This document shows positions 32,932-44,196 of a stretch of 64,000 bases of DNA, in pieces (the first letter of the stretch is position 1; each line of letters opens with the position of its first letter). Both the position numbers and the translations under genes were made by a program. The notes beneath the pieces were generated by a model. That model did no database searches. It had not been told where the DNA came from and worked only from the letters and a program-made list of their open reading frames with translations. This DNA is from Escherichia phage ECO340P2: sequence record OP172792, one strand, 5' to 3'.

Positions 32932-33435
32932 TTGATGGGTGTAGCAACAATAGCTATCGGAAGAAGCGGTATAGATGAGTGCTATCAAACGGGACTCGTA
33001 AAACCTAACGAATTTCGTCAAATTTGTGTAAACCATATTGAAAAAGAGATTGCTCTTACTTTAGAGAATATGACCCTCCGAGATAAACTGGAAATGTTTA
33101 AATGTTGGTGTCTAGGAGAAGATTGGCTTTTAAACCATTTTCAAGAACTTTCTGATAGTAAAGAAAGCTTGTTTGATTGTATAATAGGAATAGCTGGCTC
33201 CGATCCTACCCTTCTGCACATAACAGAAGAAGAGGCGAAGTTACTGTTCTTAAGTAATTTGTTTAATAAGAAAGCACTGCTTGTTCGTGATTGCAGTGAT
33301 CTTCTTAATAACCCGCTCGCAACGTCTGATCAAATTTTTGTTGACAAAGAGACACTACGTGCGATAGAATACATCTGCAAATATGTGAATGGCGGGAAAG
33401 CGGTTCTTAAAACATTAACAGAGGAGGAAGAATAG
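32932..33435 (+). CDS. hypothetical protein
   Basis: 167 aa ORF, RBS AGGAGG. Confidence 0.5.
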   Translation: MMGVATIAIGRSGIDECYQTGLVKPNEFRQICVNHIEKEIALTLENMTLRDKLEMFKCWCLGEDWLLNHFQELSDSKESLFDCIIGIAGSDPTLLHITEEEAKLLFLSNLFNKKALLVRDCSDLLNNPLATSDQIFVDKETLRAIEYICKYVNGGKAVLKTLTEEEE

Positions 33436-34127
33436 TGACGACAATTATTGCAACCAAAAATAAGATTTTGAGTGACGGTAAGGTAACTTTTGGTGGACGT
33501 GTAGATTCTATTAATTTCAAAAAGGTCCGAAAAATTGGAGATTACCTTGTAGGTGGTGCTGGTCGTCTGACCTCCGTGCTTTCTTTCTTTCAATGGTTTG
33601 AACAAAATCTACAGTGCGAAGCAGCACGTGATGCTGTCCCTGGTTTGATGATTCACTCTGATCCAGATAAAGAAGATGAAGAGTTTATTGCACTTGTTGT
33701 TCATCCAGACGGACGTATTTTCCTGCACGAAGGTAACAACCCAACACGTGCATATCCGATTGATGAAGAATATTATGCAGTAGGGAGTGGGTCAGATTTT
33801 GCTTTAGCTGCTCTTGATGCAGGGGCAACACCAGAACAGGCTATGGAAGTAGCTAAAAAGCGAGATGCTTTTTCTGGTGGTGAAACATTTATTGAAGAAC
33901 AAGACGAGATTATTGAATTAACAGATGATGATTTAGAAAACTTCTCCAAAGAAGAATTGATCAATCTTTTGAAATTCGGTAATCCCTACGGTGAAGAAGA
34001 ACCTCGTAACGTGGCAGGTAACGAGGCGGATACTGAAGAAAAATCTGTTGCAGAAAACAACTTGACTTCTAAATCTGAAAATATTAATCTCGTAAATGTG
34101 GCGGATTTCGAAGGAACCGCTATTTAA
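33435..34127 (+). CDS. HslV-like N-terminal nucleophile peptidase (proteasome beta-type fold) with acidic C-terminal tail, GTG start
   Basis: mature N-terminus TTIIA, KVRK, VGGAG and AVGSGSDFALAA align with recalled E. coli HslV blocks. Confidence 0.65.
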   Translation: MTTIIATKNKILSDGKVTFGGRVDSINFKKVRKIGDYLVGGAGRLTSVLSFFQWFEQNLQCEAARDAVPGLMIHSDPDKEDEEFIALVVHPDGRIFLHEGNNPTRAYPIDEEYYAVGSGSDFALAALDAGATPEQAMEVAKKRDAFSGGETFIEEQDEIIELTDDDLENFSKEELINLLKFGNPYGEEEPRNVAGNEADTEEKSVAENNLTSKSENINLVNVADFEGTAI

Positions 34128-34172
34128 CAAACTGCCCCTTCGGGGGCATTTCTTAAACATAGGAGATTAATA

Positions 34173-34607
34173 ATGTTACAAGTTCCTGCTAAGTTTGTTG
34201 AAGGCGCTATCCACTCTTACCGTCAAACATGTAAGAGGGCAAGAAACTGTTTAGATGGTCTGGTGGCAAAAACCTATACTGTTGAAAAGAAGAAACGTTG
34301 GTTTGGCAAAGATGTTTATGAAGTTAATATTTTTGGTGAACATAAACTAAACCATGACACTCCTGAAAACATGTTAGAAATATTTCTAAGAGATGACAAA
34401 ATATCTCCTATGGATTACCAACTTTTAAAATTTTATGATTCTTCTTTGGCTATTGATAAGTTTGTTGAAGATATTCTGTCTAGAAAAACAGATAAAAACA
34501 CTTATCCTCTAGAAGCTGATCAAATAGGATTATTAAACGAGATTTCATCCTTTAAAGAGTTGGATAATATTACAAAAGAGGAGATTTTAGATGGCATTAG
34601 ATTATGA
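34173..34607 (+). CDS. hypothetical protein
   Basis: 144 aa ORF. Confidence 0.5.
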   Translation: MLQVPAKFVEGAIHSYRQTCKRARNCLDGLVAKTYTVEKKKRWFGKDVYEVNIFGEHKLNHDTPENMLEIFLRDDKISPMDYQLLKFYDSSLAIDKFVEDILSRKTDKNTYPLEADQIGLLNEISSFKELDNITKEEILDGIRL

Positions 34608-35100
34608 TCGCCCAACGAGCGATTATTATCCGACACCGCAAAAAGCAATCAATAGTTTGTTTAGTGTTATAGATTTCAAAAATCTAAAGGAAGAAGGTTG
34701 GGTTTTTGCAGAACCTTGCAGAGGTGAAGCTGAAGCGATTTATCGCCATTTTCCTGAAGGTTCAGAATATTGCGAACTTGAAGAAGGCAAAGATTATTTT
34801 AGTCATGAATGGGAAAATCGTCCCGACATTATAATCACAAATCCTCCATTTAAGTTAGCAATGGAGTTCTTGGAAAAGAGCTTAAAAGAGGCGGATGTTT
34901 GTGTTTATCTTCTTCGGTTGGGCTTCTTGGAGTCAAAGAAACGACGAGAGTTCCATCAAAAGAATCCACCAACAAACCTTATAGTCCTTTCAGAACGGCC
35001 TTCGTTTGTTGCAGGTGGAACAGATAAGACAGCATACGCTTGGTATGTATACGACCCAAAGAATCGTTTGGGCCTCTCTCAACCATTTTATTTTGTTTAA
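34591..35100 (+). CDS. DNA N6-adenine methyltransferase (small phage Dam-like)
   Basis: 169 aa; YYPTPQ near N-terminus and catalytic NPPF motif. Confidence 0.65.
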   Translation: MALDYDRPTSDYYPTPQKAINSLFSVIDFKNLKEEGWVFAEPCRGEAEAIYRHFPEGSEYCELEEGKDYFSHEWENRPDIIITNPPFKLAMEFLEKSLKEADVCVYLLRLGFLESKKRREFHQKNPPTNLIVLSERPSFVAGGTDKTAYAWYVYDPKNRLGLSQPFYFV

Positions 35101-35112
35101 GGAGTGTGAACT

Positions 35113-35349
35113 ATGGGTAAACTAATTATGACAGTGGCTATTGATTTTGATGAAGTAGATGAGAGCCTCAACCTTTCACTTTCTACTGACGTAGATGGCG
35201 AAATGGATAATATTGAAGCAGCTACTGCTCTTTTCTTCAAAAAAGCCATTGAAGTTTATGCCGAACATGCTGCAAATCAGGCAGTAGATTACGGTGGTAT
35301 CGTGCGAGCTTTAGTTCACTCTACCGAGGGCAATGACTGGGAAGATTAA
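35113..35349 (+). CDS. hypothetical acidic protein
   Basis: 78 aa ORF. Confidence 0.5.
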   Translation: MGKLIMTVAIDFDEVDESLNLSLSTDVDGEMDNIEAATALFFKKAIEVYAEHAANQAVDYGGIVRALVHSTEGNDWED

Positions 35350-35552
35350 TGGCTTACAATTATTACTGCATTTATGCACATGAAAAGAAAAAAGGTGACA
35401 CTGGGACTAACGTTTATGCGGAGTCCGAATCTCATGCAAAAGAGATTGGTGCTATCCTTTTATCACGCTGGACTGGAAATAATTACAGTGCAGAAGATAT
35501 GTTTGCAGAAGTGGATTCTAGTATACAAGAAGACAACATAACAACTACGTGA
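35349..35552 (+). CDS. hypothetical protein
   Basis: 67 aa ORF overlapping previous stop. Confidence 0.5.
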   Translation: MAYNYYCIYAHEKKKGDTGTNVYAESESHAKEIGAILLSRWTGNNYSAEDMFAEVDSSIQEDNITTT

Positions 35553-35561
35553 TATACTTAT

Positions 35562-35586
35562 ACTCCCTTTTCGGAGGGAGTATTTT
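35562..35586 (+). terminator. rho-independent terminator
   Basis: ACTCCC-TTTTCGGA-GGGAGT hairpin followed by ATTTT. Confidence 0.5.
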
Positions 35587-35597
35587 AAGGAGGGATT

Positions 35598-35792
35598 ATG
35601 CAGAGCGGAGAAGAACTTTTAGAGAAACAATTCTCAACGCGTCAACAAGCTTTAAGTTATATGGTTTTTCTAAGCAATCTTGATGTGAATGAGATACTTT
35701 TACGGCGCGAAGGTAATTTCTGGAGCGTTAAATATCATGCAACAAGGTCTGTAATCTACCTAGAAGAGGCGGAATTCTCTTTGGTAGAATGA
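35598..35792 (+). CDS. hypothetical protein
   Basis: 64 aa ORF, RBS AAGGAGGG. Confidence 0.5.
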   Translation: MQSGEELLEKQFSTRQQALSYMVFLSNLDVNEILLRREGNFWSVKYHATRSVIYLEEAEFSLVE

Positions 35793-35806
35793 TCCGAGGA
35801 GTAGTT

Positions 35807-36379
35807 ATGCGTTCAACTTTCACTGGCAAAATAAATGCTGGTTTGATTTTTACAGCAGTAAGCATTCTTAGCAAAAAGTTTAAAGTTGTTAACTTACCTG
35901 TGTGTGTCGATTTCGATCATGTTTTTGATCCTTCGAACCCCACTCGTTGCATAGTAAGGAGTAATGTTGAAAACCCAACAGAAAATCTTTTTTATGTAAC
36001 AAAACCATCTCAAAGCATACTTAACCAGGTTGAGGCGAAATTGATACCTAACGGTAAATATTACTCCTTTTTACCTTGTAAGTCGGTTGAAGTAGAGAAT
36101 AGCAATACTTTCGCTAATAACTTGTCTGTATTCGTTTTCTTTGTTTCACAGGAAGACGAAACAGATGAAATGGTAGCAACAGTGAGATCACTTTATGACT
36201 CTTTAGGGGTTGTTTATAGTCAACAAGTGTGCGAAAATAATAAAGCCTGTGTAGATTTCATTATCAACGGTATTTGTGTTTGTAGAGTAGAATCTTTTTG
36301 GCTGCACGATACATATGTGACTGTAGCAGAGGTTATATCTGAACCAAGATTTAGTCATGCGGTTTCGTTAATAATTTGA
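35807..36379 (+). CDS. hypothetical protein
   Basis: ATG after GAGGAG; ORF-track start 35789 overlaps upstream gene. Confidence 0.5.
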   Translation: MRSTFTGKINAGLIFTAVSILSKKFKVVNLPVCVDFDHVFDPSNPTRCIVRSNVENPTENLFYVTKPSQSILNQVEAKLIPNGKYYSFLPCKSVEVENSNTFANNLSVFVFFVSQEDETDEMVATVRSLYDSLGVVYSQQVCENNKACVDFIINGICVCRVESFWLHDTYVTVAEVISEPRFSHAVSLII

Positions 36380-36389
36380 GGAGGAAGGA

Positions 36390-36719
36390 ATGGAAATTAC
36401 TACAGAACAAGCCCTTATCGACGAGGGTCGTAAAATCTTAGAAAAGTATTTAGGGGAGATTCATAAAACCCCTGGCTATTTGGGTTGGAGAATTGTTGAA
36501 GCTGTAGATTTCCTTCCTCGTAACAGTAAAAACGTCGAAATGCGATCTCTTTTCTTATTAGTAAAGGTGGATGGGGATACGCCTTTTAAAGATGCCGCAG
36601 AACATATTGAAAAAGTTGAAGAGAAAGCTTATGCAGAATTTGCCGATCTTGTTTTAGAACAAGAGATTGAAGGAAAGGTGAATATTTTTATTTTCTTAGA
36701 TTTTGAGGAGGATAAGTGA
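36390..36719 (+). CDS. hypothetical protein
   Basis: 109 aa ORF, RBS GAGGAGG. Confidence 0.5.
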   Translation: MEITTEQALIDEGRKILEKYLGEIHKTPGYLGWRIVEAVDFLPRNSKNVEMRSLFLLVKVDGDTPFKDAAEHIEKVEEKAYAEFADLVLEQEIEGKVNIFIFLDFEEDK

Positions 36720-37459
36720 TCATACACAGAGAAATTACTGTTAAAAGCGATCAAGATCTTTTTATAATTGGAGATCTACACGGTTGTTATAATTTGTATG
36801 AAAAAGGAAAGGCAAAGTTAGGTATCCGAGATACAGATGTGGTTGTATCTCTAGGAGATCTTACTGACCGTGGAAAGCAAAACTTTCGTTGTGTTTTAGA
36901 ATTTACTCGTAAACACAATCGCTACGCTATTCGTGGCAATCATGAAGACATGATGATTAAAGGTATGCTGGAAGGAGATCGTAGCTACTACGAGTGTTGG
37001 TATCAAAATGGAGGATATACGGTCTTTGAAGAATGTGGTGAAGAAGGAGCTACAGCCTTAGCAATGATGACAGAAGATTTACCTGTTGTTCTCATTGTTA
37101 ACTACAGAGGCATGAAACTTGCGTTTATTCATGGTGGGTATCCATCTTCTTTGGAATATCTCCCTGTAACAGATATTCCAGAATACATTTCGAAGATGAC
37201 AAAAACACAGGAAAACCGTTTTGCTGAAGCACTTATGTGGGACAGAGATATGGTAGACTGTGCTAAAGAGGGAATGAAACTTCCTGTTGTGATGGGTGTG
37301 GATTATGTGTTTCATGGACACTCTTATGTAAAAACACCTATTATCAATGCGAATCGTGTTTATATGGATACTGGATCTGTGTTCAATAATAACTTAACAT
37401 TTGCTTATTTCGATATGGACGGTGGTCTTCAATTTTATTCAACTCTTGAGGAGGATTAA
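36716..37459 (+). CDS. Ser/Thr protein phosphatase (PPP-family metallophosphatase, lambda PPase-like)
   Basis: GDLHGC, GDLTDRG, RGNHE motifs in canonical order. Confidence 0.75.
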   Translation: MIIHREITVKSDQDLFIIGDLHGCYNLYEKGKAKLGIRDTDVVVSLGDLTDRGKQNFRCVLEFTRKHNRYAIRGNHEDMMIKGMLEGDRSYYECWYQNGGYTVFEECGEEGATALAMMTEDLPVVLIVNYRGMKLAFIHGGYPSSLEYLPVTDIPEYISKMTKTQENRFAEALMWDRDMVDCAKEGMKLPVVMGVDYVFHGHSYVKTPIINANRVYMDTGSVFNNNLTFAYFDMDGGLQFYSTLEED

Positions 37460-37767
37460 TGTATAAGATTACAATTATTCAAAGTGTAGGTAATATCCGT
37501 AAAGAAGTTATCTTAGAAACAGAAGATGTTAATCTTGTTCGTGAGATTGTTCTTAAGGAAGATAACCTGCAAGCTGTAGAATCAGATGCACCGAATCTTA
37601 TGGTGGATCAAGAATATTCTGAACTTCGTCGTATTTTTGAAGAGATTCAGAAGAAAGAAACACAACCTACCATAAAACCTTTTGGCCCTTATGATCCGAG
37701 CAATCCTAGCAGTCCTTGGATCATGAGAAATACGGAACCCTATACACCTTTTGAAATTACTTGTTGA
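37459..37767 (+). CDS. hypothetical protein
   Basis: 102 aa ORF. Confidence 0.5.
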   Translation: MYKITIIQSVGNIRKEVILETEDVNLVREIVLKEDNLQAVESDAPNLMVDQEYSELRRIFEEIQKKETQPTIKPFGPYDPSNPSSPWIMRNTEPYTPFEITC

Positions 37768-37774
37768 GGTGATT

Positions 37775-38356
37775 ATGGCAGAACTGTTCTATACGGGAGT
37801 TGGAAGTAGAGACATATCCGAAGAAGAGTGGGCTTTGATGGTAGGTATAGGGAAATGGCTTTCAAACCTTGGGTTTAAATTAAGGTCTGGGAAGGCAGAG
37901 GGTAGTGATTCTGCTTTTGAAACAGGTGTCCAAGAGTCTGAAAATCCTACTAACAAGGAGATTTATGTTCCTTGGGAAAATTTCAAAGGTAATCAGATTC
38001 CAGGGGATGTTATTGTTCTTGCAAAACCAGATACAATGAACTATGCTATCTCTGTGCAGTGGATCAAAGATGTTCACCCAGCCTATGAAAAGCTTAAGCA
38101 GGGTGCCAGAAAATTGCACCAACGTAATGTGCATCAAGTGTTAGGTAGAGATTTGGAGAATCCTGCTCCATCATGTTTCTTGTTGGCTTGTGCTAATACT
38201 GATAAACATGGAGATGCAAAAGGTGGAACAGCTACGGCTTGGAAGATAGCTAAAGCCAATAATGTTCCTTGTTTAAACATTCGTGGGAAAACAAAACAAG
38301 AGATTTACGATTTTCTACGACCTTTGGTAATGAGGGCAATAACAAGTGATTCCTAA
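37775..38356 (+). CDS. Rossmann-fold protein, DprA/SLOG-like
   Basis: YTGVGSRD ... LRSGKAEGSDSAFETG resembles DprA/LOG-type nucleotide-binding loops; ATG after GAGGTGA. Confidence 0.4.
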   Translation: MAELFYTGVGSRDISEEEWALMVGIGKWLSNLGFKLRSGKAEGSDSAFETGVQESENPTNKEIYVPWENFKGNQIPGDVIVLAKPDTMNYAISVQWIKDVHPAYEKLKQGARKLHQRNVHQVLGRDLENPAPSCFLLACANTDKHGDAKGGTATAWKIAKANNVPCLNIRGKTKQEIYDFLRPLVMRAITSDS

Positions 38357-38858
38357 ACGTAAACGTGGTGAACAAAGAACAAACTTGGCAGAAATCTTAG
38401 ATTACAACATGGTTAATGATGTGACAAAAGAAATTCTGCCTGTTGTAGAAGATATTCTTCAAAGAGGATTACGATTCTGCTCGGATCGGGTGCATTTCAT
38501 GTGGACACATAAAAGTGACTCCGCTTTGAATTTCTATCCTTTGGATTATACTCTGAACAATACAGAGATGAAAGATATCAACAAATACTTAATGGGATAT
38601 AAAGATATAACCGAAACCGTTCTTGGAGAATTGGCAGAAATCTTGGCTAACGATATCCTTAGAAATATTAATAAGGCTCTTGACAGAAGCCCAGCAGGAG
38701 TAGTAGTATCTTTTGCTGTGCCAGATATGGTTAAATATGAGTCTACAATACCTAATAAAGCTTATGCCTTTCTTCGGAGAGACGTTCGTGGAAATGTGTT
38801 GGAGATGGAGTCAAACTACAAGATTGAGGAGGTTTTATGGCAGAGTTCGGATCAGTAA
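38346..38858 (+). CDS. hypothetical protein
   Basis: 170 aa ORF. Confidence 0.5.
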   Translation: MIPKRKRGEQRTNLAEILDYNMVNDVTKEILPVVEDILQRGLRFCSDRVHFMWTHKSDSALNFYPLDYTLNNTEMKDINKYLMGYKDITETVLGELAEILANDILRNINKALDRSPAGVVVSFAVPDMVKYESTIPNKAYAFLRRDVRGNVLEMESNYKIEEVLWQSSDQ

Positions 38859-39127
38859 CAAGTTTTGAAAGTAACTTCGTTACCGCTTGGGAAGCTTGGG
38901 ATGAAATGGGTGTTGGTGAACTTTATTTTTACAATGTAACACTACGTCCAGAGTATGCTTATCTGGTACCAGAAGGAACAGTTCAAATTGGCATGTATCT
39001 GTCTTCTCAAGACGGTGTTGTTCAATTTGAGTTTTATTCAAACACAACGGACAACGAATTTACATATCGTGCATTTCATGTCAACATGTCTTTAGGAGAG
39101 GAGAAATTTTATGACGACCAAGTTTAA
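38837..39127 (+). CDS. hypothetical protein
   Basis: 96 aa ORF. Confidence 0.5.
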   Translation: MAEFGSVTSFESNFVTAWEAWDEMGVGELYFYNVTLRPEYAYLVPEGTVQIGMYLSSQDGVVQFEFYSNTTDNEFTYRAFHVNMSLGEEKFYDDQV

Positions 39128-39308
39128 AACAGTAGAAGAAGCCGTAAAAGCAGCTTATGAGGCTTTAGCGGAAGCAGAGCAGTTAGCAGATGAGACTGGT
39201 AAAGGTTTCCGTTTCTCCCCTGAATATGGGATGGGTGGCTATTATGATCCAGAAGATGAAAATGAGAATACTGGAACAAATTGGCATCCATCTTCTTTAA
39301 GTTGTTAA
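39111..39308 (+). CDS. small protein, WxSS..C C-terminal family member 1
   Basis: 65 aa; ends GTNWHPSSLSC. Confidence 0.5.
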   Translation: MTTKFKTVEEAVKAAYEALAEAEQLADETGKGFRFSPEYGMGGYYDPEDENENTGTNWHPSSLSC

Positions 39309-39319
39309 TAGGAGGTAAA

Positions 39320-39595
39320 GTGGGAATCGAAGATATCAAAGGTTATAAGGCGCATACTGACGATAAGATTGGCAAGGTTAACGCTATTAAAGATGCAGAA
39401 GAGCGTTTAGGTTTAATCTTCAAAGCTTTAGAGGAAGAGTATTGTGAAGCATATCATGGGTCTTTTGACGGCACAGAAAAAGAATTAGATTTTGCATACG
39501 AACGTATTGATCAAATCCGTTGTGCTATTAAACATTTAAAAGAAGCTAGTATGTGGGCTTGTCGTTCAGTTTTCCAACCAGAGGAGAAATATTAA
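39320..39595 (+). CDS. hypothetical protein, GTG start
   Basis: GTG 4 nt after AGGAGG; ORF-track TTG start at 39281 has no RBS. Confidence 0.4.
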   Translation: MGIEDIKGYKAHTDDKIGKVNAIKDAEERLGLIFKALEEEYCEAYHGSFDGTEKELDFAYERIDQIRCAIKHLKEASMWACRSVFQPEEKY

Positions 39596-39813
39596 TGAGT
39601 GATCGTAATGTTGAAGAATTAACTGAAAAAGCCCAAGCTATTATGGCTTTAGTTGACGAACTTACAAAAGAAGCTGAAGATGCTGGTTTTGGTCTTAGTT
39701 TAGAAGATAATGCAATCTGTTTTGAAGATTGGCAATCCTCTTCTTGTTATGGTGAAGGTGACGATGGTTTCGTTGTTAATTCTCAAGGCGTTTGGCACAG
39801 TAGTAGCTGTTAA
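39595..39813 (+). CDS. small protein, WxSS..C C-terminal family member 2
   Basis: ATG after GAGGAGA; ends GVWHSSSC. Confidence 0.5.
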   Translation: MSDRNVEELTEKAQAIMALVDELTKEAEDAGFGLSLEDNAICFEDWQSSSCYGEGDDGFVVNSQGVWHSSSC

Positions 39814-39822
39814 GGAGAGATT

Positions 39823-40095
39823 GTGGAGTCTGAAGGCGAACTGCTGATAAAAAAGAAAGTTAAAGAGATGGAACAAGCACAAAGAAAGTTTCGTAAAGAG
39901 ATTGAAGAACTTTGTGAACAATTTCAGGAACAAGCTTGGATTGGTGACTATGATAATGGAGAAACTTATTACCCTACCGGAACACCAGCCGCAGACCACT
40001 ATATTGACTTTATTTGTGAAGATTATGGTGTAGAGTTAGATGAAAATGGTTTAACCACAAGAGGTGTTTGGGTCTCTTCTTCATCAATGTGTTAG
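39823..40095 (+). CDS. small protein, WxSS..C C-terminal family member 3, GTG start
   Basis: ends GVWVSSSSMC; RBS AAGGAGAG. Confidence 0.5.
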   Translation: MESEGELLIKKKVKEMEQAQRKFRKEIEELCEQFQEQAWIGDYDNGETYYPTGTPAADHYIDFICEDYGVELDENGLTTRGVWVSSSSMC

Positions 40096-40104
40096 TAAAT
40101 AATA

Positions 40105-40126
40105 ACCCGCTTCGGCGGGTTTTTTA
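40105..40126 (+). terminator. rho-independent terminator
   Basis: ACCCGC-TTCG-GCGGGT hairpin followed by TTTTTTA. Confidence 0.6.
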
Positions 40127-40155
40127 TTGACAGAGATAGGGAAGCTTGATAAACT
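40127..40155 (+). promoter_or_regulatory. sigma70-like promoter (TTGACA-17-TAAACT)
   Basis: abuts terminator T-tract (TTTTTATTGACA), same arrangement as at 21717. Confidence 0.4.
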
Positions 40156-40185
40156 TGATCTATCAACCAATAGAGGAGAAATATT

Positions 40186-41127
40186 ATGGTGTTAATTGGT
40201 AGCCGTGCATTACAAATTCATGCTATGGATATGGGAAAAGACTTGTATCGCCCTTGTGTAGATTTAGATTACCTGTGTACAGAACAAGAGTGGGAAGAAT
40301 TATCAAAAATGTTCTCTCAAGAGGAGTTTGTTGAACTTGTAGAACGTAAAGGGAACAAGGGCCATGTCAAAATGATAGCTGGTGCACATTTGGAATACGA
40401 TATTGCTTCTCAAGGAGATAGCACAGAAGCTTTGATTAGTTATTGTGAAGAGTCTGATGATATTCGTCGAACTTACGCTGGACATGTTGTTGCTCCTTTA
40501 GATGTGCTCTACCTTCTTAAAATGAGTCATCGTTTTAAAAAGGATAGTCCTCACTTCTTTAAAACTATGAAAGATATTCATTTCATGCGATCACTGGGCG
40601 CAAAGATCCCAGAAAATCTTAAGAGTATTTATGAGTTGCGTGAGAAAGAAACATACACTTACTCTCATCCAAACTTAAACGTAAAAAGTAAAGACTTCTT
40701 TAAAGGTGATGAGGTTCCGTATGTTTATGATCATGATTCTATCCACGAAGCCATTGCGGTAATGGATGCTCCAGCATATAAATCTTATATGAAAGATGGA
40801 AGTGAAGTTATGACCAGCAAAGAAAAGTTTTTTGCTCAACCAAAACATGTGCGCCTGTTAGGTGTTTATGAAGAAGCGTGTGTTTTGGCTTTGGAACGTT
40901 CACAAATTCCTTTCGGTGAAGAGATCGGAGGTCCAACACCTAAGCAAAGTTTTATGATGGCTTTATCTAAAGTTTGCACATCCATTACTAGTGGTTGGTT
41001 TAGGGAATATGCCTGGGAGAACTTTTACGTTGTTACTAAACTATATGAAAACATGGGTGAAAACGACTATGTTGAACGTTTTAAAGCTAATCGCCATGTA
41101 GTAAAGCCTTTTGAAGGAGGTTATTAA
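40186..41127 (+). CDS. hypothetical protein
   Basis: 313 aa ORF, RBS AGAGGAG. Confidence 0.55.
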   Translation: MVLIGSRALQIHAMDMGKDLYRPCVDLDYLCTEQEWEELSKMFSQEEFVELVERKGNKGHVKMIAGAHLEYDIASQGDSTEALISYCEESDDIRRTYAGHVVAPLDVLYLLKMSHRFKKDSPHFFKTMKDIHFMRSLGAKIPENLKSIYELREKETYTYSHPNLNVKSKDFFKGDEVPYVYDHDSIHEAIAVMDAPAYKSYMKDGSEVMTSKEKFFAQPKHVRLLGVYEEACVLALERSQIPFGEEIGGPTPKQSFMMALSKVCTSITSGWFREYAWENFYVVTKLYENMGENDYVERFKANRHVVKPFEGGY

Positions 41128-41128
41128 T

Positions 41129-41524
41129 ATGTGTGGATATCTTTCAGAAAGTTATTTCAAAGTGACCCATGAGGATTTAGAAAAAGCACGATTGAAATTG
41201 ACAGCTATTATTGAATACTCTAATACTGTTGATCACAGATTAAAGACTACTAAAGTATCTGTTCCTTGTTGGTTAGGTTTACGGCATAAAACAATGTCTC
41301 AACATGATCATGTTGTTCGAGAGATGCATGGTTGGTGTTGGTTTCACGATGTGGCTCTGCATTTTGGTTATATTACAGAAGAAGAACATAGATTCTGTGA
41401 GCTAACATATCGTATTCCAACCCTTCACGATTTAGATTTGTGGAGGAAAGCAAGTGAGATCTTTCTGACAGAAAGTGATTGGCGTAAAGTTATGGCTTGT
41501 CTTGAATGGAGGGGCAATGAGTAA
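41129..41524 (+). CDS. hypothetical protein
   Basis: ATG after GGAGG; ORF-track start 41111 is inside previous gene. Confidence 0.5.
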   Translation: MCGYLSESYFKVTHEDLEKARLKLTAIIEYSNTVDHRLKTTKVSVPCWLGLRHKTMSQHDHVVREMHGWCWFHDVALHFGYITEEEHRFCELTYRIPTLHDLDLWRKASEIFLTESDWRKVMACLEWRGNE

Positions 41525-42200
41525 AACAGTTTTGTCTATGTTTGACGGATCTGGTATCATGGTGTTACGTTATGCCGAAGCAGGTCACAAGTGTTTTTGT
41601 GTAAACGCTGATGAAGGGGACCACGGTAAATACGAGGTCAGGATGGAGCACCCAAACATAACCTATGTGAATGCTTGGATAGATTCTACATTCAACCCTG
41701 AAGATCACGGAATACCTAAACCCGATATTATTTTTGGATTTCCACCTTGCACTATGTTAGCAGGTAGTGGTAGCAAACACGAACGTAGCACAGAGGAATT
41801 AGATGAAGCTTTAGCTAATATTCGTGTAGTGGAAGCTTTGGGTAACAAATACAATGTTCCTTGGATGATTGAGAACCCAGTAGGTAAACTTTCAACCTTA
41901 TGGCGTAAACCTGATTTTTACTTTGATCCTTATGAGTATGGTGGGTATTTGTTTGAAGAGGAAGGAAGCTTTCATCCTAAAATGCCTACCCGCGATGGAT
42001 ATACAAAGAAAACTTGTATCTGGTACGGAAATGGTTTTGTTCAACCAGTGAAGAAACCAGTAGATCATATAGGCTGTTTCTGGGGTTGGAAAAGCTTGGG
42101 TGGAGCTAGTGCAAAAACAAAACAACTTAGATCGCTAACAGCACGTGGTTTTGCTCGTGCAGTGTTTTTGTCTAACAATCTTCTAGATAAGGAGAAATGA
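41517..42200 (+). CDS. compact DNA (cytosine-5) methyltransferase-like protein
   Basis: motif I-like MFDGSG, motif IV-like FGFPPC, motif VI-like WMIENPVGKL; only ~227 aa, no obvious target-recognition domain. Confidence 0.45.
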   Translation: MSKTVLSMFDGSGIMVLRYAEAGHKCFCVNADEGDHGKYEVRMEHPNITYVNAWIDSTFNPEDHGIPKPDIIFGFPPCTMLAGSGSKHERSTEELDEALANIRVVEALGNKYNVPWMIENPVGKLSTLWRKPDFYFDPYEYGGYLFEEEGSFHPKMPTRDGYTKKTCIWYGNGFVQPVKKPVDHIGCFWGWKSLGGASAKTKQLRSLTARGFARAVFLSNNLLDKEK

Positions 42201-42853
42201 TGTCAAATTCAAAACAATTAGTTGCTTATCAAGTAGATCGTAATGATGGGGAAGGAAGTGTTGTTATTTTCAGTACACACGGTCTTGAGGCTCGTCGAAA
42301 AGGTGCATATCGTTTAGAATGTGAGTTTGAAGACTGCACAAGCCACCGTGTCAAACAATTCGATCAATATGCTGATAAAGGCTTCGTCCCTATCAAAGCC
42401 TTACTGGAAGATGGTTGGTGGGTATATTCTGCTTTTGATTACTCAAAACTGGAGGAGTCAGCTTCGTGCGCCTCCGAGATCGAATATGATGATTACTATG
42501 ACACTCTCTACCTTCCAGAATGGCTTGTCTTTTCTCCTGATGAGAGAAGTGTCTGGAAAACTTGGGAAGAAATGGAGAGACATGCATATAGCATCAATGA
42601 AGCCTTAGATCGTAAAGCTTGGTTTATTGAGGCAGTAAAGGCGGCATACCCTCAATTCTCATTTTGTGATTTCACTGGTGGCCCAGGATACATTACACAT
42701 ACAGCCTCTTTTGAGTTCCCTGGCTCACGTTATAAAGGTAATGTTTATTGGGATTGGGATGAAAATAAACAACCTTCGGCTCAAGACTTCCGTTGCTATG
42801 TTTGCCAAGGTGATCAAGAAGCCCTTGACAAATACCTTCAAAGTCTGATATAG
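42197..42853 (+). CDS. hypothetical protein
   Basis: 218 aa ORF overlapping previous stop. Confidence 0.5.
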   Translation: MMSNSKQLVAYQVDRNDGEGSVVIFSTHGLEARRKGAYRLECEFEDCTSHRVKQFDQYADKGFVPIKALLEDGWWVYSAFDYSKLEESASCASEIEYDDYYDTLYLPEWLVFSPDERSVWKTWEEMERHAYSINEALDRKAWFIEAVKAAYPQFSFCDFTGGPGYITHTASFEFPGSRYKGNVYWDWDENKQPSAQDFRCYVCQGDQEALDKYLQSLI

Positions 42854-42870
42854 TGTCAACATCTGAACAA

Positions 42871-42897
42871 AGCCCCCTGTTTCAGGGGGTTTTTCTT
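42871..42897 (+). terminator. rho-independent terminator
   Basis: CCCCCTG-TTTC-AGGGGG hairpin followed by TTTTTCTTT. Confidence 0.55.
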
Positions 42898-42910
42898 TAT
42901 AGGAGGAAAT

Positions 42911-43396
42911 ATGTTTCAAGTAAATGTCAATGTGCATAATAGTTACTCTGATTGTGAAACGTGTGGCTATAGTTCATCTAATGTTGTTCGTATCAGTGGT
43001 GATTTGGGAGAAGCTTCTTTTGGAGAAGAAGCAAGTTGCTTTAGCGGTATGGATGCAGAATGGAATGATATTGCACATTGGTTGGTGAGCAAACTAAAAG
43101 AAAAAGAGAAACCATTTCCTACTCTGCTTGATCGTTCTCTTGTAGAAGACGCAGGTAAAGCCTATGCAGATTACGCTTATGCAGATGGGAAGTACTTGGA
43201 AGATGACAAGGCTAACCATTTGCTTTATGTTTACTATGAAGCTGAAGCTGCCTATGATAATTATTATAGTATGTCCAATATCTTACGGCTATTTGCAGAG
43301 TTTGATATCTATTTTGAAGTAGAGTTTTCAGAAGATGATACTTACGAGTATGATTCTTATGATCCATTTGAGGAGGAAGAATGCCAAGACGAGTGA
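42911..43396 (+). CDS. hypothetical highly acidic protein
   Basis: 161 aa; Asp/Glu/Tyr-rich C-terminal half; 3' end overlaps the Sir2 gene start. Confidence 0.5.
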   Translation: MFQVNVNVHNSYSDCETCGYSSSNVVRISGDLGEASFGEEASCFSGMDAEWNDIAHWLVSKLKEKEKPFPTLLDRSLVEDAGKAYADYAYADGKYLEDDKANHLLYVYYEAEAAYDNYYSMSNILRLFAEFDIYFEVEFSEDDTYEYDSYDPFEEEECQDE

Positions 43397-44196
43397 TTTT
43401 TGTAAGTGGTGCAGGTTTAAGTGCAGACAGTGGGATTCGAACATTCAGAACAGACACAGATAGCGGTCGTGCTTTATGGGAAGAATACGATTTAGAAGAG
43501 GTCTGCAATATTGGAGCTTTCCAAGCAGGTTATCGTGTGAGAACATCTCCAGATCTTCCGGTGGTTGGAGGTGTAGACGAGAACGGTATAGATTTATATG
43601 CCAAAACACACGAATTTTATAACAAAAGACGTGTTGAGCTTAAAAACGTACAACCTAATGCTGCGCATCTTCAAATAGCCAAATGGTTTAAGGAATATCC
43701 TAACCAGGTAGTAAACTTGACAACAAATGTCGATGATCTACTAGAGCGAGCAGGGGTAGACAGGGACTCGGTTGTTCACGTGCACGGTTATCTTCCTGAA
43801 GTAGTCTGCCGTATGCACCCTGGAGATTACAAAACACTGGTGGATATTGGTTACAATAGTATAAACATAGATGATTATAACTGGGTGAAGCCTAATGTAG
43901 TCTTCTTTGGGGAAGCTGCTCCACTTTACACGGATATGTATCATATTTTTGATACATTGACGTCTCAAGATATGGTGATTGTAGTAGGCTGCTCTAATCA
44001 AGTTATCAATTTTAACTGGGAGCTTTTTCCTGCTCTTAACATCGGGACAAAAATGGTCGTAGTTAATCCAGGAGTTAATTACGAAGAAACACTTCTCTAT
44101 GAAGATCGTGGAGTTTTTGTTTACCGAGAAAAAGCTGTAACAGCCTTCAGTAATGAAGGTTTCATTAAAATGGTCGAAGACCACTTAAACAAATAA
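43381..44196 (+). CDS. Sir2-family (sirtuin-like) NAD-dependent protein
   Basis: N-terminal VIFVSGAGLSADSGIRTFR matches the sirtuin NAD-binding signature GAGxSxxSGIPxFR. Confidence 0.7.
   Translation: MPRRVIFVSGAGLSADSGIRTFRTDTDSGRALWEEYDLEEVCNIGAFQAGYRVRTSPDLPVVGGVDENGIDLYAKTHEFYNKRRVELKNVQPNAAHLQIAKWFKEYPNQVVNLTTNVDDLLERAGVDRDSVVHVHGYLPEVVCRMHPGDYKTLVDIGYNSINIDDYNWVKPNVVFFGEAAPLYTDMYHIFDTLTSQDMVIVVGCSNQVINFNWELFPALNIGTKMVVVNPGVNYEETLLYEDRGVFVYREKAVTAFSNEGFIKMVEDHLNK

Follow-up and report, generated by a model that had tools for sequence, protein, structure and literature searches.

The two genes

The 64,000-nucleotide (nt) stretch of Escherichia phage ECO340P2 DNA considered here (record OP172792; the whole stretch is called the window below) carries two intact plus-strand genes for DNA methyltransferase-like proteins. 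One, at 34591–35100, encodes an N6-adenine type enzyme of 169 amino acids (aa), and the other, at 41517–42200, a compact cytosine-5 (C5) type enzyme of 227 aa, with ~6.4 kb and ~20 unrelated genes between them. The source phage is a Phapecoctavirus (Stephanstirmvirinae), a phAPEC8-like E. coli myovirus of ~150 kb, and more than 60 deposited genomes are ~98% identical to the window. It is probable, in our judgement, that the two products are solitary, catalytically competent DNA methyltransferases with GATC and CCWGG as their targets, and that they mark the DNA of the phage as it replicates.

The N6 gene begins with an ATG preceded, 7 nts upstream, by AAGAGGAG. The longest mechanical open reading frame (ORF) around the C5 gene, 41475–42200 on the plus strand, begins with a GTG and would give 241 aa; the start used by the homologs is the internal ATG at 41517, and GGAGG is 4–5 nts upstream of it. 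The Shine Dalgarno sequences of both genes are good. Within the N6 protein, motif X is YYPTP at residues 12–16 (YYPTPQ at 12–17), motif I is EPCRGE at 41–46, motif III is represented by D68 and motif IV is TNPPF at 83–87. In the C5 protein, motif I is FDGSG at residues 9–13, motif IV is FPPCT at 75–79 with the catalytic C78, and motif VI is ENP at 119–121 with E119; WRKPD (129–133), YTKKT (162–166) and a C-terminal LRSLTARGFARAV (204–216) follow.

An earlier sequence-only reading had proposed two solitary methyltransferase-like genes on the strength of such motifs, and in this it was right: both ORFs are present and intact, its coordinates were exact, and the phrog families to which the products belong are DNA methyltransferase families (phrog_799, or VOG0822, for the N6 protein with E 6.5e-59; phrog_757, or VOG4567, for the C5 protein with E 4.6e-84). 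These matches, together with 244 N6 and 844 C5 homologs in a set of 5.8 billion proteins and with tblastn matches in 548 and 1,487 phage records respectively, exclude chance ORFs. The range of both families takes in Drexlerviridae, Dhillonvirus, Vequintavirus and phi92. Nearer to hand, bases 34000–43000 of the window match 78 phage records, 61 of which cover at least 80% of that length at 95–99% identity. In RefSeq and GenBank the genes of near-identical phages are labelled ‘DNA methyltransferase’, ‘putative DNA methyltransferase’, ‘Dcm’ or ‘DNA N-6-adenine methyltransferase’. Both genes have thus already been annotated under names that are essentially right, and for each a relative was characterized between 2023 and 2025, so their identification is not a new finding.

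The N6-adenine enzyme

Members of the compact N6 family are 156–227 aa long, mostly 165–200 aa. In their alignment T15, E41, P42, C43, T83, N84, P85 and P86 are invariant, and D68 is nearly so. The window protein has a class I methyltransferase fold with the gamma-type motif order X-I-III-IV and an (N/D)PP(Y/F) active site. Its AlphaFold model is a single domain (predicted local confidence, pLDDT, 89.9; predicted TM-score, pTM, 0.86) that matches gamma-class catalytic domains, with scores of 12.9 for M.TaqI, 13.0 for MmeI, 12.0 for M.BseCI, 11.8 for CamA and ~11 for HsdM. The aligned lengths, 139–159 residues, span nearly the whole protein. After NPPF there are 82 residues and then the end, and the protein has no separate C-terminal target-recognition domain. 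The sole Pfam hit is to EcoRI_methylase, at 14.6 bits and so under the cutoff of 26.4, and NCBIfam gave none.

A subset of the N6 homologs has a zinc-ribbon-like insertion of ~25 residues (C..C...C.CGG; CxxC...CxCGG) between RPSF/RPxF and GxTD. It could serve as an additional element for DNA recognition; the window protein does not have it.

The cytosine-5 enzyme

The homologs of the C5 protein from the large protein set are 210–267 aa long. An exhaustive profile search gave 1,853 clusters of the family at 50% identity, the full-length members of which are nearly all 200–260 aa and matched end to end. The sequence-only reading had taken the C5 enzyme to be truncated; as 200–260 aa is the norm across ~1,850 clusters, with ~70 residues between WRKPD and the C-terminal motif, it is not. 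That it is structurally unusual, as the same reading had it, stands for the lack of an identifiable motif X but falls as far as truncation is concerned. A profile search of the compact protein, which had been named there as a check, places it in the DNA methyltransferase family phrog_757. While the window protein itself has no match to PF00145 above threshold, a 63%-identical relative (P0058) passes with 27.3 bits against a cutoff of 22, over motifs I–IV only.

Motifs I (FxGxG), IV (PC) and VI (ENV) occur in the canonical order. In the alignment of the close family FDGSG and ENP are invariant, and motif IV reads FPxCT with P, D, S or Q as the residue before the cysteine. Among 89 representatives at 31–57% identity C78, E119, P121, P138, K164, T166 and W169 are invariant; the catalytic residues are so in 39 close and 89 diverse sequences alike. 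Judged from the alignments, the catalytic residues of both the N6 and the C5 enzyme are evidently under purifying selection. The alignment of the C5-family profile with E. coli Dcm starts at motif I, includes Cys177 and stops at the ENV Glu225; it is colinear throughout but of weak statistics (hhalign E 0.036, probability 1.4%). It puts F9, C78 and E119 of the window protein opposite the motif I Phe, Cys177 and Glu225 of Dcm, and an alignment with HaeIII agrees.

Between ENP and WRKPD, where canonical C5 enzymes hold motif VII, there are 11 residues only. From WRKPD to the conserved C-terminal LRSLTxRGFARAV there are ~70 residues, and a recognition element would sit there. The C-terminal RSLTARGFARAV, taken by eye for the canonical motif IX, did no better than shuffled controls. 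The AlphaFold model of the C5 protein has a pLDDT of 88.3 and a pTM of 0.88. Searches of PDB sequences with single sequences and with profiles gave marginal matches only for either the N6 or the C5 protein.

Activity of characterized relatives

For the N6 enzyme the informative relative is that of Bas51, the Vequintavirus WalterGehring. Its ‘N6 adenine methyltransferase’ leaves a GATC N6-methyladenine (m6A) logo on phage DNA, and in a T83P mutant that logo is almost gone, even on a normal host (PMC12548924). Overexpressed, the enzyme is toxic; it also triggers the retrons Asa1 and Squ1, and engineered escape mutations were D69G, D79G and T83P (PMC12548924). The gene product bas51_0176 has 177 aa, with D69, D79 and T83 at those positions, and is 47% identical to the window protein over its full length, colinear from end to end. 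The three residues correspond to D68, D79 and T83 of the window protein, so all are kept.

The C5 counterpart is the 711-bp ‘Dcm’ of phage K42, a relative of KarlJaspers (Bas06), which triggers retron Ec86 (bioRxiv 10.1101/2023.08.16.553469). By LC-MS (liquid chromatography–mass spectrometry) it puts 5-methylcytosine (5mC) on the multicopy single-stranded DNA (msDNA) of the retron, a C82A/E128A/K175A/K176A mutant is inactive, and Ec86 defence also needs a CCTGG site in the msDNA (bioRxiv 10.1101/2023.08.16.553469). The Bas06 gene bas06_0055 is likewise 711 bp; its product of 236 aa carries C82, E128, K175 and K176 and shares 49.8% identity with the window protein (E 1.7e-71). Those residues correspond to C78, E119, K164 and K165 of the window protein.

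Proposed mechanism and its difficulties

What is directly supported is the fold of the two proteins, the conservation of their catalytic residues and the activity of their homologs. From these we infer that the window enzymes are themselves active, that they have retained the targets of the homologs and that they serve self-methylation. The N6 enzyme would bind S-adenosylmethionine (SAM) via YxTP, EPCxG and D68 and methylate the N6 of adenine via TNPPF, its target most likely being GATC as for the Bas51 homolog. In the C5 enzyme, Cys78 would attack C6 of cytosine while Glu119 protonates N3, and the methyl group of SAM would pass to C5 to give 5mC, the proposed target being CCWGG as for the K42/Bas06 homolog. 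The two enzymes would methylate fast-replicating phage DNA beyond the capacity of host Dam and Dcm, so that progeny DNA would have the full host-like Dam/Dcm pattern. A role on replicating phage DNA is supported by the Bas51 T83P mutant: since it lost nearly all GATC methylation on a normal host, host Dam alone leaves the GATC sites of the phage largely unmethylated. By analogy, self-methylation of replicating phage DNA would be the most likely mechanism.

EcoRII-type (CCWGG) and MboI/DpnII-type (GATC) restriction enzymes are inhibited by these marks. Host-like marks would hence block restriction of both types, and they might also evade host proteins that act on unmethylated or hemimethylated GATC. 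An anti-restriction role, with which the sequence-only reading had found the lack of a nuclease consistent, is plausible but unproven. The genes would also bring a cost, one demonstrated with the relatives: both enzyme families are sensed by retrons, the C5 family by Ec86 and the N6 family by Asa1 and Squ1.

Site statistics were obtained for the 64-kb window against a Markov expectation. There is no avoidance of GATC (observed/expected, O/E, 0.95) or of CCWGG (O/E 0.79; z −1.7, not significant), and GCGC and TGCA likewise are not avoided. Other sites are: GTAC occurs 51 times where 178 are expected (O/E 0.29, z −9.5), the palindromes CCGG (O/E 0.33), GGCC (0.38) and CTAG (0.56) are also strongly avoided, and CCSGG is absent (0 against 5.8 expected). 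The pattern suggests long-term selection by restriction systems of the RsaI, HpaII/MspI and HaeIII types. The window has no signature of 5mC deamination, as CTWGG and CCWAG are not in excess and CCWGG is not significantly depleted. Non-avoidance of GATC and CCWGG fits protection at both sites.

Several points weigh against the proposal that both enzymes are active at GATC and CCWGG. Non-avoidance of these sites is equally expected for any phage of Dam+ Dcm+ E. coli. Both proteins fall short of every Pfam and NCBIfam threshold, and a canonical motif X of the C5 protein was not identified by profile alignment, which reaches motif VI only. Activity is known from homologs alone, at only 47–50% identity to the window proteins; the CCWGG specificity of the K42 enzyme was itself an assumption drawn from host Dcm by analogy and has support from the msDNA-site mutation only (bioRxiv 10.1101/2023.08.16.553469). 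Residues ~178–195 of the window C5 protein diverge from those of Bas06, so specificity could differ. As to restriction, the Drexlerviridae in BASEL give no simple link between a methyltransferase gene and restriction resistance, and the Vequintavirinae and their relatives are exceptionally vulnerable to the six restriction–modification (RM) systems of BASEL (PMC8594841). Vequintavirinae and relatives include members that carry both compact methyltransferase families. None of the six RM systems is known to target GATC or CCWGG, and what BASEL found therefore narrows the range of any protection without refuting it. Nothing specific on a Phapecoctavirus methylome or on restriction of these phages was found in the literature.

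Other readings of the two proteins

The most serious rival, which we hold to be unlikely, is that both proteins are active DNA methyltransferases but with target sites other than GATC and/or CCWGG. The modest identity to the characterized enzymes leaves room for it, as does the fact that K42 specificity does not come from genome-wide mapping. Residues ~137–200 of the C5 protein vary between subfamilies: in addition to the divergence of Bas06 just mentioned, the D6 protein is without ~12 residues. In the close family, on the other hand, the stretch expected to hold the recognition element shows high conservation (more than 60% identity over 120 hits), and the window spares GATC and CCWGG while GTAC, CCGG and GGCC are strongly depleted.

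That one or both enzymes act on RNA (making m5C in tRNA as DNMT2 does, or m6A in rRNA as METTL5, Erm or KsgA do) or on protein glutamine (HemK-like, with NPPY) is much less probable. PH1948 and METTL5 match the N6 model as well as the gamma-class DNA enzymes do, and therefore the fold alone leaves the substrate unfixed; the evidence for both homologs, however, concerns DNA.

Very little probability attaches to the 227-aa protein being a CmoX-like carboxymethyltransferase, which would use host carboxy-SAM to make 5-carboxymethylcytosine, or another enzyme with a cofactor other than SAM. CmoX (PMC12783734; PDB 8yf3) is a 333-aa protein with an SPPC motif and linkage to cmoA and cmoY, and its Arg350 stands where motif X has its Asn (Asn304 of M.HhaI). 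The window protein has 227 aa and FPPC, and no counterpart of Asn304 was located in it. Its 50%-identical homolog from K42 makes 5mC by LC-MS, neither CmoA nor a CmoY-type ligase appears in ~95 kb of annotation from a 98%-identical genome, and the scores of DNMT3, M.HhaI and M.HaeIII equal or exceed that of CmoX.

Lastly, failure to reach any Pfam or NCBIfam gathering threshold, and a C5 protein without the region of motif VII and with no motif X that could be identified, would be in keeping with decayed, catalytically dead remnants or with chance ORFs that happen to have short motifs, but the ORFs are intact at 95–99% identity in more than 60 Phapecoctavirus genomes, the catalytic residues do not vary in hundreds of clusters and equally compact homologs are active, so that next to no weight can be given to this idea.

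How such small enzymes recognize their sites is the remaining point of interest. We entertain, as a tentative and rather doubtful possibility, that the 169-aa and 227-aa enzymes are among the smallest sequence-specific DNA methyltransferases and have a recognition mode not yet described, or specificities unlike those of their relatives. Recognition might, for example, be by obligate homodimerization across a palindrome, as with DNMT3, or by loops built into the catalytic core. There is no solved structure for either compact family. A separately encoded specificity subunit or partner was rejected as the reason for the small size, since the C5 gene has entirely different neighbours in Drexlerviridae, Dhillonvirus, Vequintavirus and D6.

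Genomic context and solitary status

The N6 gene is the second of its transcription unit. A terminator-like hairpin at 34133–34148 (plus strand) precedes the unit, the first gene of which, at 34173–34607 on the plus strand, encodes a 144-aa protein with no function assigned (phrog_15078, E 4.2e-83) and no match in Pfam or PADLOC. The 3′ end of this gene overlaps the start of the N6 gene by 17 nts. A second terminator-like hairpin, at 40104–40121 on the plus strand, is followed directly by a promoter-like site, TTGACA-17-TAAACT with TG, at 40127–40155 on the same strand; together these consensus matches split the unit containing the N6 gene from that containing the C5 gene.

In a plus-strand cassette of four genes, 40186–42853, bounded by terminator-like hairpins, the C5 gene comes third. 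The first gene (40186–41127) encodes a 313-aa protein with DUF7277 (E 1.1e-13) and DUF7275 (E 2.8e-76), of phrog_2141. The second, on the same strand and ending at 41524, encodes a phrog_16551 protein and overlaps the start of the C5 gene, while the start of the fourth (42197–42853, plus strand; phrog_8514) overlaps its end. These overlapping stops and starts suggest translational coupling in the cassette. A strong terminator-like hairpin of 11 pairs with a T-run, at 42869–42893 on the plus strand, closes it. Terminator-like sites of this kind numbered 20, against 6.5 ± 2.4 in shuffles.

The sequence-only reading had noted no restriction endonuclease partner, and none came to light. The three cassette neighbours of the C5 gene have no PADLOC defence, restriction-enzyme, nuclease or PDB match, and they are not kept beside the C5 gene in Drexlerviridae, Dhillonvirus, Vequintavirus or D6. 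Nor is there a restriction enzyme in the annotation of the 98%-identical genome, which covers ~95 kb, the structural-gene part (~45–87 kb and 137–151 kb) lying outside it. The only nucleases annotated in that relative (an HNH homing endonuclease, exonucleases, an ‘anti-restriction nuclease’ and an endonuclease beside an ATPase gene) are all far from either methyltransferase gene. Because the neighbours are without a nuclease match and differ between phage groups, and ~95 kb of annotation is without a restriction enzyme, the orphan status of both genes is supported.

Both compact families also co-occur in unrelated phage groups. In the Dhillonvirus ‘rolling’ their members are at 2495–3190 and 4030–4515, no more than ~1 kb apart and with an HNH gene in the interval, and the rV5-like phage FV3 has both families and a third adenine methyltransferase of 448 aa. 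A candidate third DNA methyltransferase in the window, the 159-aa product of 1296–1775 on the minus strand (RefSeq NC_052662 gp148), was rejected: it is an XkdF-type prohead serine protease (PF14550 Peptidase_S78_2, E 1.4e-11, 44.9 bits against a cutoff of 24), and its methyltransferase label appears to be a propagated misannotation. The gene is flanked by the portal gene and by a head-module ORF of 371 aa (178–1293).

Both methyltransferase genes are within a plus-strand block of early/middle DNA-metabolism genes. The same block has an HslV-like peptidase (33435–34127), a NinI-like Ser/Thr phosphatase of the Metallophos type (36716–37459), a DprA-like protein (37751–38356) and a Sir2-family protein (43381–44196; PF02146, E 1.6e-24). 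A Sir2 encoded by the phage could have a bearing on host defences based on NAD+. The 196-aa product of 35789–36379 (plus strand) has the PHROG label ‘histidyl tRNA synthetase’ (phrog_4806, E 3e-64) and no Pfam synthetase domain; the label is probably misleading, the protein being far too short for that enzyme. Three small paralogs of phrog_899, at 39111–39308, 39595–39813 and 39823–40095 on the plus strand, encode 65, 72 and 90 aa. A 104-aa phrog_717 gene separates the first from the second, and all three products are acidic in their N-terminal part and at the extreme C-terminus share an invariant W-x-S-S-(x)-C.

Significance

As a discovery the pair has little weight, since the labels are public and the relatives characterized. 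Phapecoctaviruses are, however, used in phage-therapy cocktails. Possession of both methyltransferases predicts sensitivity to methylation-sensing retrons of the Ec86/Eco1 and Asa1/Squ1 types, and protection against no more than a few kinds of restriction enzyme. The virion DNA is predicted to be Dam- and Dcm-type methylated even when it comes from dam− dcm− hosts, which bears on cloning, restriction mapping and nanopore base-calling. The compact families are also attractive as minimal scaffolds for structural work on specificity in enzymes without a canonical recognition domain.

Comparison with known systems

The sequence-only reading had called the N6 enzyme Dam-like. For its likely target, GATC, the description is apt; for its family it is not, as the protein is gamma-class-like and has no Pfam match to the alpha-class Dam of E. 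coli and T4 (PF02086) or to phage Dam (PF05869). In comparison with E. coli Dam and T4 Dam it has NPPF in place of DPPY, the gamma motif order, ~100 fewer residues and no DNA-binding domain, and what it probably has in common with them is the product, m6A at GATC on phage DNA. M.TaqI, MmeI, M.BseCI, CamA and type I HsdM have a large separate target-recognition domain or subunit, whereas the phage protein is the catalytic domain alone. Closest in kind is bas51_0176, in which the motifs YxTP, EPCR, D and TNPP[YF] recur and which is also solitary in a large myovirus of the rV5/phAPEC8 type. It differs in that Bas51 is of another genus and its gene is beside that for a ClpP-like protease, and it is in Bas51 alone that GATC specificity, toxicity and retron triggering have been shown.

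The C5 protein is ~100 residues shorter than E. coli Dcm, M.HhaI and M.HaeIII (PF00145). Relative to these canonical enzymes its recognition region is limited to ~70 residues, the motif VII region is missing, there is no identifiable motif X (GN), the motif that in canonical enzymes closes the cofactor pocket, and the residue before the catalytic Cys varies across the compact family (P, D, S or Q). The solved fold closest to both the window protein and the K42 enzyme is the catalytic domain of DNMT3A/DNMT3B, at 14–18% identity and a TM-score of only ~0.5. DNMT3A and DNMT3B form dimers or tetramers with DNMT3L and have CpG as their target. The K42/Bas06 enzyme, of Drexlerviridae, is encoded by a siphovirus genome and has several short insertions, and 5mC formation and the triggering of Ec86 are on record for K42 alone; it is a member of the same compact C5 family, and all four key residues are common to it and the window protein.

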